Positions 3,849-26,234 of a DNA stretch of 64,000 nt are shown here, in pieces (within the stretch, counting starts at the first letter, position 1; each line of letters starts with the position of its first letter). Made by a program: the position numbers and the translations under genes. Origin of the DNA: an uncultured Alphaproteobacteria bacterium. Lineage in GTDB: Bacteria > Pseudomonadota > Alphaproteobacteria > Caulobacterales > Aquidulcibacteraceae. The DNA lies in assembly GCA_902826245.1 (NCBI GenBank), contig CADEEA010000007.1:4285-68284 (forward strand), given 5' to 3'. The notes under the pieces were generated by a model. It did not search any database. It saw only the letters and a program-made list of their open reading frames with translations, and was not told the DNA's origin.

Positions 3849-4539
3849 CGACGCCTCGCGCCTTCAGGAACGCAGTCGCCGCCGCGCGCTGGGCCTCACG
3901 CTTGGAGCCGCCCTCGCCGCGCGACGCGGGAAACCCGTCCACCTGCGCTTCGATCACAAACACCGGCGCATGCTCGGGGCCGGTCTGTTCGATCAACGAA
4001 TAGGAGAGCCCCCGGCGCTTTGACGCCGTCCATTCCTGCAGCACCGTCTTGGCGTCGCGCGGACTGGCGTCGGCTTGCGCGAATTCTTCCGCCCAGAAAC
4101 GCGAAACGAACGCGTGCGCAGCGACGTAGCCTCCATCCAGATAGAGCGCTGCGATCACGGCCTCGCAGAGATCGGCGAGGATCGCCTCCTTATTGCGCCC
4201 ACCCTGCGCCACCTCGGACGCGGACAAATAGGCGAATTCGCCGAGACCGGCACGCCGCGCTGCGCGCGCGCAAGCGTGACGATTGACCAGCGCATTGAGA
4301 CGCGGCGCCAGTTCGCCCTCTTCCTCATCGGCGTGCGCTGCGTACAGGTGTTCGGCGATGATTAGGCCAAGCACGCGATCGCCCACGAATTCCAGGCGCT
4401 CGTAGGAGCGCTTCCTCTTGTCGCCATCAGTGGTGCTGCCGTGAGTCAGCGCCTCGCGCAACAAAGCTGGATCCTTGAATCGATGCGCCAGGACGACCTC
4501 CAGCGCCGCGAGGGACTCGTCGCGCTTTGGCCCGCTCAT
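3841..4539 (-). CDS. rnc: Ribonuclease III
   Basis: ERLEFVGDRVLGL signature and C-terminal dsRBD. Confidence 0.97.
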   Translation of the reverse strand: MSGPKRDESLAALEVVLAHRFKDPALLREALTHGSTTDGDKRKRSYERLEFVGDRVLGLIIAEHLYAAHADEEEGELAPRLNALVNRHACARAARRAGLGEFAYLSASEVAQGGRNKEAILADLCEAVIAALYLDGGYVAAHAFVSRFWAEEFAQADASPRDAKTVLQEWTASKRRGLSYSLIEQTGPEHAPVFVIEAQVDGFPASRGEGGSKREAQRAAATAFLKARGVDV

Positions 4540-23232: not shown

Positions 23233-25245
23233 TCAGAACGATGCCGCCACCGAGAAGCGGATATTGCGGCCCGGGAGCGGCAGGTCGTCTTTCAGGAACG
23301 AGGCGTGCACGCGACCCAATTCATCGGTGAGATTGCGCCCGTCGAGGCGCAACGTGAATGCGCCGTCCTCGCCGTCAGGCCGGAACGCGATCCCGGCATT
23401 GAGGAAAGTGTATCCTTCTGTGCGCGTCTCGAACGCGGCCAGGCGCTCCTGCTCGCCGGTGCGAACCGCCGCGACATGGCCCCGCCAGTGCGCATTCTCC
23501 GCGTCCAGGCCGATCGTCAGAGAGGTCGGCGGAATCCGCGGCGGCCGGCCTCCGGCATCGAAGTCCGCGCGCACCAAATCATAGGCGACGTCACCCGAAA
23601 CCTGGAATCCGCCTATCTCAAACAAGGGCGCCCGCACGGAAATTTCGCCGCCCGTGAACGTCGCGTCCTGCTGCGTGAACACGAACACCGGCAGCACCGC
23701 AGCGCCCGCAGGGATCGAAGGGTCGCTCCCGTCCGGCGCAAAGCCGCTCGTCTCGGTCGCTTCATCGAGCCAGAACACATCGCCACGCTGAACCAGCGCA
23801 ACGTAATCTTCGAAATTGATGCGATAGAGGTTCGCCTCGAGACGGAAGCGTCCGGATTCGTGACGCGCCGAAATTTCGAACGAAGTCGCCGTCTCCTGAT
23901 CGAGCGTCGGGTCGCCGATTTCATAATTGGCGGTGGCCAGGTGAGGCCCATCGGCAAAAAGCTCTATCGCAGTTGGCGCGCGCTGCGTGCGCGCCAAAGT
24001 AGCCCCGACAAACCAATTCTCCGCGGGGCGGAAGAAGACGCCGGCCGACCCACTCGCATTTTCAAACTCACGAGCACCGCCGCCAACGTTGTCGATTTCA
24101 CGCCGTTCGATGCGCGCGCCGCCTTCGAGCCCCCAGGCGCCGAGATCCAGGCGTTCAACGATGAACGCACCCAAATCTTGAGTGTTGGATGGCGTAATGA
24201 ACGCCTCTTCGCCTTCCGCAGCGAAGTCGGCGTTCGTGTACTGCACCCCAAACGCGCCTCGCAGGCGTTCCCCGCGGTGATGCGCCTCCACGCGTCCTTC
24301 CCAACCGGTGACGACAAAACGCGTGCCGGCGGCGCCGTCGCCTTCAAACTCCGTGTGTTCGTAATCTGAATGCTGTGCGCCGAAATCGAGCCGATCGAAC
24401 GGCCCGAAATCCACCCTCGCATCGCCGCGCGCTTCGACGCGGGTTTGTTCGAGTTCGATATGCCCGCCGGGCTCGCTTGGGTCTCCGGGCGGCAGGCCGT
24501 ATTCATTCTCCGTGCGCTTGATCGCGAGCCCAGCGAAGCCGGGTTCGCCTACCAGCGCACCGCCGGCGGAATAGGCGCGGAAGCTGGTCCAGGAATTCAG
24601 CGCCGCCCCAATCGGGGTGTCGTAATCGTCAGTTTCGCGCGCGGCGGCGCTGGCTGTGAACGCAAACGGCCCGGCCCCGCCGGTGACAGAGCCGAAACCC
24701 TGGCGACCTTCGTCAACGTCCGAAAATGCGGCGAATCCCTCGAAGCTCAGCGCGGCCGCCGCTCGCGTCGGTATGCTCTCGTCGATGACATTCACCACCC
24801 CGCCGATAGCGTTGCCGCCATAAGCCAGAGCGGCTGCTCCGCGCAGCACTTCTATGCGATGCGCGTCGAGACCATCGGCGGTGACCGCATGGTCAGGACT
24901 GGCCGATGACGCGTCGATAGCGCCGATGCCGTTTTCCAGCACGCGCACACGGTCTTCGCCGAGCCCGCGGATAATGGGGCGGCTGGCGCCGGCGCCGAAA
25001 AACGTGGTGGTGACGCCTGGCTGTGCGTCAAGCGTGTCGCCCAAGCCGCCGTTCAGGCTCTCAACGATATCGTCGCGGCTAAGCACGGTCGCGCCCTGCA
25101 GGCTCTCGATGCGCGACCCTTCGATCGGGGCAGTGACGACGATCTCGTCTTCCTGGTTAGTTTGAGCGGTTGCAAGCGCCGGCAACATCGAGCCGACGAA
25201 AGCAGCGGCCACGAGCGCCGCGCGGTCTTTTGAATTGGTAGCCAT
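23233..25245 (-). CDS. TonB-dependent receptor (ZnuD-like metal receptor style)
   Basis: Signal peptide, TonB box EIVVTA, plug GASRPIIRG...DHAV...IEVLRG, C-terminal Phe. Confidence 0.9.
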   Translation of the reverse strand: MATNSKDRAALVAAAFVGSMLPALATAQTNQEDEIVVTAPIEGSRIESLQGATVLSRDDIVESLNGGLGDTLDAQPGVTTTFFGAGASRPIIRGLGEDRVRVLENGIGAIDASSASPDHAVTADGLDAHRIEVLRGAAALAYGGNAIGGVVNVIDESIPTRAAAALSFEGFAAFSDVDEGRQGFGSVTGGAGPFAFTASAAARETDDYDTPIGAALNSWTSFRAYSAGGALVGEPGFAGLAIKRTENEYGLPPGDPSEPGGHIELEQTRVEARGDARVDFGPFDRLDFGAQHSDYEHTEFEGDGAAGTRFVVTGWEGRVEAHHRGERLRGAFGVQYTNADFAAEGEEAFITPSNTQDLGAFIVERLDLGAWGLEGGARIERREIDNVGGGAREFENASGSAGVFFRPAENWFVGATLARTQRAPTAIELFADGPHLATANYEIGDPTLDQETATSFEISARHESGRFRLEANLYRINFEDYVALVQRGDVFWLDEATETSGFAPDGSDPSIPAGAAVLPVFVFTQQDATFTGGEISVRAPLFEIGGFQVSGDVAYDLVRADFDAGGRPPRIPPTSLTIGLDAENAHWRGHVAAVRTGEQERLAAFETRTEGYTFLNAGIAFRPDGEDGAFTLRLDGRNLTDELGRVHASFLKDDLPLPGRNIRFSVAASF

Positions 25246-25336
25246 CGAAAATCTTCCTCGTCTATTCGTTCACAGCTGGATCGGCGCACGCACGGGCGGC
25301 CGGCGCCGCTGACGCGGCGCATGATTTCAGTGAGCT

Positions 25337-25717
25337 TCAGACGAGGGAGGGAGGCGCGCGGCTTCGCCAGTGGTGCGACCAGCGCAGACTTGGGGCAGGG
25401 GCGTCGGCCGGCGACGCAATCTGGGTCCCGCTTAATGTTGGCGGCCGAAGCGCAGCACCTGTGGCAAGTCCAAAGCCCCGGGCGGAGGCTGCGACCTGGC
25501 AGATCTGGCATACGCCCTGTTCGAGTGCGTCCGAGCCGTCGGGTTGCGCCGCCGAAGCGAACCCGGCCAAAGCCGAAGGCGCGCCTGATGTCCACACATC
25601 GACGTGGGTCTGAACAAACAAGCCGTTGAGCAGAAGCGCGGCAACGGCCAAAAGCGCCGTCAACCGACGTGCGGTCTCGCGAGACGCCCGCGACAAAGTG
25701 CTGGTGAGCAACTTCAC
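25337..25717 (-). CDS. DUF2946-like leader protein with CxxC and C-terminal RAPP motif
   Basis: Hydrophobic N-terminal segment, CQIC (25499-25510) and RAPP (25349-25360) three residues before the stop. Directly upstream of the TonB receptor on the same strand. Confidence 0.8.
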   Translation of the reverse strand: MKLLTSTLSRASRETARRLTALLAVAALLLNGLFVQTHVDVWTSGAPSALAGFASAAQPDGSDALEQGVCQICQVAASARGFGLATGAALRPPTLSGTQIASPADAPAPSLRWSHHWRSRAPPSLV

Positions 25718-25740
25718 CCGCCGCTTCTACAACGGGCGGG

Positions 25741-25755
25741 TGTTATTGTATAGCG
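25741..25755. promoter_or_regulatory. Possible Zur-like box
   Basis: TGTTATTGTATAGCG compared with the palindrome TGTTATNNNATAACA (2 mismatches), just upstream of the DUF2946-receptor unit. Confidence 0.35.
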
Positions 25756-25811
25756 TTGTAGCGACGAACCGTCTGAAATCGCAGGCGGAACACCTGCCCT
25801 GGGGCTCCCGC

Positions 25812-26234
25812 TTAGCCCACAATCTCTTGATCGGCGAAAAAGAACTCGATTTCGCGCGCGGCGTTCTCAAGCGAGTCCGAACCGTGCACGGAATTGGCCT
25901 CGATCGATTCCGCGAATTGCTTGCGGATGGTGCCCTCAGCAGCATTGGCGGGATTGGTCGCCCCCATCACGTCGCGATATTTCGTCACCGCGCCTTCGGC
26001 CTCCAACACCTGCACCACGACTGGGCCGGAGATCATGAAAGTCACCAGGTCGCGGAAGAAGGGCCGCTCCTTGTGCACCGCATAGAAACCTTCAGCCTGC
26101 CCCTCTGAAAGCCATATGCGCTTCTGAGCGACGATCCGCAGACCCGCGCTTTCTATGACCGCGTTGATGGCGCCGGTCAGATTGCGCGCCGTCGCGTCCG
26201 GCTTGATGATTGAGAGTGTGCGTTCGGCGGGCAT
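25812..26234 (-). CDS. ndk: Nucleoside diphosphate kinase
   Basis: [11 protein letters not shown] and NSVHGSDS motifs. Confidence 0.97.

Follow-up and report, generated by a model that had tools for sequence, protein, structure and literature searches.

How is the synthesis of an outer-membrane metal importer set when its gene is preceded by a small open reading frame (ORF) with a metal-binding motif and a putative ribosome-arrest site? This question is raised by a locus on contig CADEEA010000007.1 of an uncultured alphaproteobacterium of the order Caulobacterales (assembly GCA_902826245.1), of which we analyzed a stretch of 64,000 nucleotides (contig positions 4,285 to 68,284; hereafter the window, whose coordinates are used throughout). 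On its minus strand a leader ORF of 126 amino acids is followed by the gene of a TonB-dependent receptor. The original prediction, made from the letters of this DNA, had taken the leader for an alphaproteobacterial version of Bordetella pertussis CruR that controls a ZnuD-like receptor and possibly senses a different metal. Our results point to a two-layer control unit for a ZnuD-like receptor, in which a CruR-type sensor with a translational read-out of the SecM/CutF type has probably been recruited to the zinc regulon; we give this reading a probability of roughly three in four.

The leader ORF (25337–25717, minus strand) starts with GTG, stops with TGA and is a candidate arrest peptide of the CruR/DUF2946 class. 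Its basic N-terminus precedes a predicted membrane helix or export signal (residues 10–34; 25616–25690), to which AlphaFold2 assigns a predicted local distance difference test score (pLDDT) of about 95, and a QTHVD motif is located at the outer end of this helix (residues 36–40; 25598–25612). The presumed metal-binding motif CQIC occupies residues 70–73, with the cysteines C70 and C73 (25499–25510). After a gap of 46 residues the presumed arrest site RAPP follows (residues 120–123; codons CGC GCG CCU CCC at 25349–25360), with SHHWRS just before it and a three-residue tail, SLV, between it and the stop codon. CruR has been characterized by an export signal, a CxxC motif, 45 further residues, a number conserved within 1–2, and RAPP three residues from the C-terminus (PMC9426467). 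All of these hallmarks are present, and judged by them the leader is a member of the CruR/CutF class. The ORF, its N-terminal hydrophobic segment, CQIC and the RAPP codons had been noted in the original prediction, the RAPP codons with exactly these coordinates.

To ask how specific this arrangement is, all stop-to-stop ORFs of at least 50 amino acids in the whole 3.2-Mb genome (n = 38,403) were scanned for a C-terminal R[AG]PP with CxxC 40–50 residues upstream. Only two ORFs carry both, and the second one, of 66 amino acids, has no resemblance to a leader. With the motif pair in just 2 of 38,403 ORFs, the leader is not a chance ORF. We then compared it with homologues from 20 genomes of the same genus (Terricaulis-like Caulobacterales), which share 27–44% identity with it. 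CxxC and R[AG]PP are kept in all 20 at a spacing of 44–46 residues, the tail has three residues in 18, and H38, C70, C73, W117, S119, R120, P122 and P123 are invariant. In a broader alignment of 120 sequences C73, W117, R120, P122 and P123 are again invariant, C70 is present in at least 90%, and H38 is invariant here as well. DUF2946 (Pfam PF11162) is matched by 15 of the 20 genus homologues at E ≤ 0.01 (best 1.2e-6). Because of these matches and the conserved motif hallmarks, the leader is best classed by its sequence as a divergent DUF2946/CruR subfamily rather than as a non-member, and the predicted kinship with CruR is upheld.

A search with a leader profile returned 1,675 cluster representatives at E ≤ 0.001, including 740 at E ≤ 1e-10. 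Among the best 150 database representatives 149 contain CxxC and R[AG]PP, spaced by 43–47 residues with a mode of 45, and the tail has three residues in 119. Two further motifs recur in this set: Q[TP]H[VI][HD] past the membrane helix, which in the looser form Q[TPAS]H[VITLF][HDE] is found in 136 of the 150, and [SAT]HxW[RQ][SG] before R[AG]PP. Leader-like ORFs that end in RAPPPRAPP or RAPPPRGPP and have no CxxC were seen at four loci (L081, L083, L088 and L093), upstream of receptors 39–42% identical to the studied receptor. In Hyphomonas- and Hellea-like genomes these ORFs may represent a family branch that is free of Cys.

The leader stop codon and the receptor ATG are separated by a spacer of 91 nt, one less than the 92 nt of the original prediction, and by 68–91 nt in all receptor-linked loci when start codons are placed by their Shine-Dalgarno (SD) sequences. 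The small hairpin expected in the spacer is present (P2; 25303–25320, minus strand; GCGCCGC-GUCA-GCGGCGC) and forms a perfect GC stem of 7 bp capped by the loop GUCA; the spacers as a group have kept two GC hairpins and a closing helix. When the leader 3′ end is included in the minimum free energy (MFE) fold, the anti-SD strand CCUCGUCUG (25338–25346, minus strand), which comprises the end of the Ser codon, the Leu and Val codons and the UG with which the stop codon begins, pairs with UAGACGAGG (25256–25264, minus strand). The latter contains the receptor SD, GAGG, at 25256–25259, 10 nt before the ATG, and the duplex has a predicted energy of -16.0 kcal/mol. A closing helix GAAAUC/GAUUUU had appeared when the spacer was folded by itself; it is unconserved in two relatives (L002 and L021) and was superseded by the anti-SD:SD helix once the leader 3′ end was folded too.

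In a survey of 30 non-redundant loci, every MFE fold has the SD paired, and in 27 its partner is formed by the last codons of the leader. The mean energy of the cognate duplexes is -14.7 kcal/mol, compared with -8.6 ± 3.2 kcal/mol for shuffled tails and -12.4 kcal/mol for non-cognate combinations. Compensatory changes are found between clades: CCUCGUC/GACGAGG at the studied locus corresponds to UUCCUCA/UGAGGAA in L002, ACUC/GAGU in L004 and GCCUCUGAGCA/UGCUUAGAGGU in L096. The same design is realized with other sequences in operons where the leader precedes genes for an outer-membrane protein (OMP) and ZnuA (CCAUCUGA.../...UCAGAUGG in L101, UCUCC/GGAGA in L117). These comparisons indicate that the main regulatory RNA element is the predicted helix between the last codons plus stop and the SD, and not mainly the small hairpin.

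The position of this helix relative to a stalled ribosome was derived from CruR of B. pertussis, for which toeprinting placed the two Pro codons of RAPP in the P and A sites (PMC12992588). If the same arrest position is assumed, the anti-SD strand lies at +10 to +16 nt from the first P-site base, within the mRNA channel or footprint of the arrested ribosome. In leaders with a five-residue tail the distance of the anti-SD stays constant from RAPP and not from the stop codon. The three-codon tail is probably conserved throughout the family because it sets the anti-SD strand inside the stalled ribosome. Forbidding pairing in the footprint costs 9.3 kcal/mol on average and lowers the probability that the SD is paired from 0.96 to 0.69, and from 1.00 to 0.50 at the studied locus. 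Arrest would thus free the SD, which implies a translational read-out of the SecM/CutF type.

Covariation in the spacer was assessed with a covariance model (R1) that was seeded on 8 spacers and recovers 26 true spacers. In the resulting alignment, which is fitted to the model, 90.4% of cells pair, compared with 18–53% in slid controls, and the spacer helices contain 9 doubly changed pairs against 3.6 ± 1.1 in shuffles; none of 500 shuffles reaches 9. MAFFT and RNAalifold gave a poor consensus for the spacers. For the anti-SD:SD helix an ungapped register alignment was inconsistent, due to bulges at the stop codon, and was therefore not used for formal counting.

A second feature of the leader 3′ end concerns transcription. 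In the last third of the leader ORF a rut-like C>G bubble extends over 25300–25440 (minus strand), with a C/G ratio of 1.4–1.9. In each of 32 loci the final 100 nt of the leader have a ratio above 1.1 (median 1.48), and in cruR a comparable bubble was identified by mapping as the rut site (PMC9426467). The translational effect may therefore be supplemented, or replaced, by Rho-dependent polarity.

The transcriptional layer is suggested by a palindrome upstream of the leader (25739–25757; core 25742–25754), which reads GCTATACAATAAC on the minus strand and GTTATTGTATAGC on the plus strand. About 25 nt lie between its end and the leader start, and it overlaps a −10-like element, TACAAT; as GTTATTGTATAGC, the palindrome differs at one position from the core GTTAT-N3-ATAAC. 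Orthologous loci were fetched with the receptor as query, and a position weight matrix (PWM) was built from 80 boxes upstream of the orthologous receptors (consensus AATGTTATAATATAACATT). With a score of 20.3 the studied site is the third best in the genome, in which only 9 sites lie within two mismatches of GTTATAnTATAAC. Of 25 loci with a leader, 22 have a similar box upstream of it. Such boxes also stand directly upstream of 46 of 50 leaderless orthologous receptors (38–73% identity; Hyphomonas, Phenylobacterium, Brevundimonas and others), often as two boxes spaced 18 nt; the four leaderless loci that have no box are truncated contigs.

In Caulobacter crescentus the Zur sites of znuK, znuL, znuM and zrpW have been validated by electrophoretic mobility shift assays (EMSA) and reporter assays (PMC4176598). 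The core of the studied operator equals these EMSA-validated sites, and the znuL core recurs unchanged in some Phenylobacterium boxes. Besides a Fur, a Fur-family protein is encoded (contig C12) whose top NCBIfam match is Zur (120 bits, below the cut-off of 167). From the palindrome and its conservation we infer a Zur-type operator that would be bound by Zur. A sigma-70 scan found no canonical promoter at the locus. Rfam gave no match in 25100–25900, so no known riboswitch is present.

Elsewhere in the genome, other top PWM sites lie next to a small membrane protein that could not be annotated and to a TPR protein or toxin-antitoxin pair. With such neighbours an independent Zur regulon is not definable in this metagenome-assembled genome. 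The best Zur-type box of the genome, GGCGTTATGTTGTAACATT (PWM score 23.2), lies outside the window at C1:34461–34479 and overlaps the start of a gene for a membrane protein of 119 amino acids. This protein is rich in His and Cys (HAHVTH...CC), has no Pfam match and is adjoined by a hybrid histidine kinase; it may be a further zinc-regulated gene. At several loci (L006, L008, L012 and others) the TATAAT-like half of the box ends just 6–15 nt before the predicted leader start, which suggests very short or absent 5′ untranslated regions, i.e. leaderless mRNAs. Such mRNAs are common in Caulobacterales. The complete Terricaulis-like genome CP096134.1 (L027, L038) contains two paralogous receptors, one leaderless with two tandem Zur-type boxes and one with a CxxC/RAPP leader and no box detected within 900 nt. 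This looks like a division of labour between two control modes. Between the studied operator and ndk (25812–26234, minus strand), the region 25758–25811 contains a short stem, GCAGG...CCUGC, with GAUUUCA behind it, perhaps as a weak ndk terminator, in which case the leader-receptor unit probably has its own promoter.

The nature of the receptor bears on the strongest alternative, namely that the leader is an ordinary copper-sensing CruR, which would sense copper as in Bordetella and control a copper importer by Rho-dependent termination, with the Zur-like box and the ZnuD resemblance being incidental. CxxC is a classical Cu(I) motif, the leader geometry equals that of CruR, copper-related TonB receptors are often preceded by DUF2946 genes, and the rut-like bubble covers the leader 3′ end at every locus. 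The receptor itself speaks against this alternative. It is encoded at 23233–25245 (minus strand), comprises 670 amino acids with Pfam Plug and barrel domains, and scores 22.4 bits with the copper-receptor model TIGR01778, for which the cut-off is 472 bits; its length falls outside the 707–911 amino acids of the CrtA cluster. Its only strong solved relative in the PDB is Neisseria ZnuD (4rdr, 1e-44), and its top NCBIfam model is also ZnuD (NF038289), at 266.9 bits compared with a cut-off of 950. By sequence, the receptor is thus related to ZnuD rather than orthologous to it.

The high-affinity zinc site of ZnuD is formed by Asp99, His100, Glu340 and His499 (PMC4557270). After correction for an offset of 14 between the 4rdr chain and this numbering, fixed by the cluster 241-HSHEYDD, the four ligands align to D118/H119 (24889–24894), E299 (24349–24351) and H435 (23941–23943) of the receptor, so that all four are kept and the ZnuD-like character expected by the original prediction is supported at the sequence level. 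The His/Asp-rich clusters of ZnuD extracellular loop 3 (chain residues 257–317, about 60 residues) have no counterpart in the receptor, where only HSDYEHTEFEGD remains. The alignment argues for a receptor of zinc type and not of the CrtA/OprC type.

The neighbourhood does not have the copper character of the cruR operon either. With ndk upstream of the unit, the receptor is its last gene, a convergent methyltransferase lies beyond it, and no PepSY_TM, PCuAC or Sco gene was found at the locus. Across the genus about 15 of 19 loci have a leader followed by a TonB receptor, and the others have a leader followed by OMP, ZnuA and ABC-3 genes. In these sister operons, present in several relatives, the same leader subfamily and the same box precede genes for an outer-membrane protein of 474–490 amino acids, a ZnuA-family binding protein (PF01297, 4.9e-34) and an ABC-3 permease (PF00950). 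The suggestion that the leader might sense a different metal is thus borne out as far as operator and operon context can tell. By comparison, five canonical, high-scoring DUF2946 genes of the same order carry an extra Cys and the motif HCPLC and end in a double Q/RGPP tail. A TonB receptor of 670–720 amino acids follows four of them, two of these receptors precede a gene that by eye looks like PepSY_TM, and no Zur-like box was found at any of the five (negative PWM scores).

Copper-type control is further disfavoured by the operator, which is shared with leaderless orthologues across the order, by the ZnuA operons headed by sister leaders, and by the spacer of 68–91 nt with stable GC hairpins, compared with the long unstructured 162 nt of cruR. 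We therefore regard an ordinary copper CruR as unlikely. In the studied genome, which is 94% complete, tblastn found no homologue of ZnuA or of ABC-3 (ZnuB-type) and no second ZnuD-like receptor. Directly upstream of the leader-OMP-ZnuA-ABC3 operon of L117 lies a HupE/UreJ_2 family gene (L117:2462–3676); His-only DUF2946 proteins have been linked to HupE/UreJ genes (Ozturk et al.). The Zur-type box, the zinc ligands, the ZnuA/ABC-3 operons and the predicted last-codon:SD helix all go beyond the original prediction.

Taken as a two-layer zinc-regulon unit, the locus would work as follows. At low cytoplasmic zinc, and only then, the Zur-type palindrome over the −10-like element would permit transcription. 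The transcript would first encode the exported CruR/CutF (DUF2946)-class leader of 126 amino acids. By analogy with CruR, the ribosome would arrest at RAPP, with the two Pro codons in the P and A sites and the stop codon three codons on. The last codons and the stop, which would otherwise lock the receptor SD in a 9-bp helix as its anti-SD strand, would be held in the mRNA channel of the arrested ribosome, the SD would be free and the receptor would be translated. At arrest 49–52 residues would separate the CxxC from the peptidyl-transferase centre, so that it would have just emerged from the exit tunnel or translocon. A metal bound at this point, perhaps also by the invariant His that follows the membrane helix, would pull the chain from its arrest, as shown for copper and CruR. 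The ribosome would then terminate and leave, the anti-SD:SD helix would re-form and receptor synthesis would stop. The C-rich end of the leader may additionally let Rho terminate transcription. In this scheme layer 1 follows from the operator sequence and its conservation, and layer 2 from the anatomy of the leader and the comparative evidence.

The polarity, with metal at CxxC relieving the arrest, is taken from CruR since it is the sole homeostatically sensible one for an importer. The opposite polarity is known from Rhodobacter capsulatus CutF, an alphaproteobacterial DUF2946 protein with an SD-shielding stem-loop, in which copper enhances stalling. If the leader behaved like CutF, metal binding or a failed CxxC disulfide would prolong the arrest, and the receptor would be induced by metal or thiol stress. 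The read-out at the studied locus is indeed of the CutF/SecM type. However, an uptake receptor that is derepressed only at zinc shortage and then induced by its substrate would form a positive feedback with little homeostatic sense; moreover, the motifs are CxxC and RAPP, as in CruR, and not CxxxC and PPP, and the leader lacks the extra Cys needed for the disulfides proposed in CutF. A CutF-like polarity is accordingly quite improbable. Finally, the small protein could itself work in the periplasm, anchored in the membrane, as a partner of the receptor that handles metal, with RAPP and the mRNA helix giving translational coupling only. This reading would agree with the conserved membrane helix, its adjoining invariant His and the conserved gene order, but is highly improbable, as outside the motifs the protein is of low identity (27–39%) and predicted to be disordered, the exact CxxC-RAPP spacing and three-codon tail are kept without a purpose in a mature protein, and CruR and CutF are rapidly degraded and undetectable as proteins.

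Several results weigh against the two-layer unit. The DUF2946 search suggested with the original prediction does give a match for the leader itself (E = 0.0019, profile positions 43–117), but at 19.4 bits it stays below the cut-off of 23.7. AlphaFold2, run with 120 sequences, predicts only the membrane helix, the one confident element, and a short helix at CxxC; the remaining leader is disordered and no folded metal site appears, so that the model gives no structural argument for zinc or copper. The His enrichment of the linker is modest (5%), with no His at all between helix and CxxC in the studied leader, and was therefore not used as evidence. At the RNA level, the z-score of the studied-locus fold is only -1.76. 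Pro codons are intrinsically anti-SD-like, and some pairing would thus arise from composition alone. With the footprint blocked, the thermodynamic model keeps the SD partly paired. The covariance model, derived from the main clade, misses the studied locus's own clade (L001, L002 and L021), so the P2/P3 covariation applies to relatives only. The B. pertussis read-out depends on Rho and works without the signal peptide, and the C>G bubble found here fits that alternative. Arrest, metal binding and regulation at the studied locus are what we infer from its sequence.

As to the sensed metal, the context does not point in one direction. The zinc-uptake setting favours zinc, with a periplasmic feedback that would complement the cytoplasmic Zur, and the family precedent favours copper, which would shut off a promiscuous importer; for some DUF2946 proteins binding of nickel or cobalt has been suggested (Ozturk et al.). 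From the sequence features we put zinc first, at not quite an even chance, and copper second, as a somewhat doubtful candidate, and leave the remainder to other signals or none. Tentatively, and at somewhat less than even odds, the leader could thus be a natural zinc-sensing nascent peptide, in which CxxC, with the invariant His/Asp by the helix, would read periplasmic or translocon-proximal Zn2+, and compaction would end the arrest and re-close the anti-SD:SD helix. In an engineered precedent, SecM arrest can reportedly be released when a zinc finger close to the tunnel exit folds in a zinc-dependent manner, which makes a zinc-driven pulling force physically plausible. If the leader does sense zinc, outer-membrane zinc uptake would be under two sensors in two compartments, Zur at transcription and an exported nascent chain at translation, and the 740 representatives found at E ≤ 1e-10 would make this a widespread regulatory layer of zinc homeostasis.

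Metal-sensing arrest peptides (CruR and CutF) have been demonstrated for copper only. Zinc is absent from the two large bioinformatic surveys consulted, and in the literature searched no description brings an arrest peptide together with zinc, Zur and a TonB-dependent protein. Leaders of the CruR type that precede TonB receptors are reported to be widespread, alphaproteobacteria included, and RAPP upstream ORFs before TonB receptors have been catalogued (PMC12992588). The CruR/CutF class is thus known, and the searched literature contains no description of the zinc-regulon wiring, of the stacking of Zur and leader control or of an anti-SD design in the last codons. The studied locus and its relatives appear to form a distinct leader subfamily wired into the zinc-uptake regulon, with ZnuD-like receptors and ZnuA/ABC-3 operons, and with a clear mRNA design in which the conserved three-codon tail after RAPP would bring the anti-SD strand to lie within the arrested ribosome. 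Should the metal prove to be zinc, the leader would be the first zinc-responsive nascent chain known from nature and would explain how outer-membrane zinc import can be adjusted faster than Zur allows. If it is copper, the unit would provide cross-metal protection of a zinc importer. With either metal the design would explain the conserved tail length across the CruR family and link the mechanisms of CruR and CutF.

Among known systems, the closest to the leader is CruR (Bp2923) of the B. pertussis operon cruR-crtA(bfrG)-bp2921 (PMC9426467, PMC12992588). Both are small exported proteins with CxxC, about 45 further residues and RAPP three residues before the stop, both are encoded by the first gene before a TonB-dependent receptor, and both have a C>G bubble at the ORF 3′ end; CruR, too, is reported to be disordered outside its helix (PMC9426467). 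The expected logic is also shared, in that arrest would turn the importer on and metal would turn it off. Unlike CruR, the studied leader falls below the Pfam cut-off, lacks the semiconserved third Cys and carries the invariant His in Q[TP]H[VI][HD] as well as a conserved HxW[RQ]S before RAPP. Its receptor is ZnuD-like with zinc ligands and not CrtA, no PepSY_TM gene follows, a Zur-type operator lies upstream, and the spacer has 91 structured nt instead of 162 nt. Since the last leader codons pair with the receptor SD, a translational read-out is expected, instead of or besides a Rho-dependent one.

In this read-out the locus resembles CutF of R. capsulatus (DUF2946; cutFOG; PMC9973294, 10.1101/2025.02.05.636593) and, by extension, SecM-secA. 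These systems share with it an exported leader, a metal motif, a C-terminal Pro-rich arrest sequence, a short spacer and an mRNA helix in which the SD of the following gene is hidden until a stalled ribosome opens it. CutF differs in its CxxxC and PPP motifs and in its cargo, a detoxifying multicopper oxidase that is switched on by copper, whereas the studied unit has CxxC and RAPP, an uptake receptor as cargo and an anti-SD strand made of the leader's own last codons and stop. At the level of transcription and cargo, the relatives are ZnuK, ZnuL and ZnuM of C. crescentus, which belongs to the same order, Caulobacterales (PMC4176598), and ZnuD of N. meningitidis (PMC4557270). With these the locus shares the operator core GTTAT-N3-ATAAC overlapping the promoter and a receptor of the ZnuD/haem-receptor type with D-H, E and H as zinc ligands. 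None of them has a leader ORF, and compared with ZnuD the studied receptor is without the His/Asp-rich loop 3 and far below the NCBIfam ZnuD cut-off. The locus thus appears to join a sensor of the CruR type, a read-out of the CutF/SecM type and a promoter and receptor of the zinc-uptake type.

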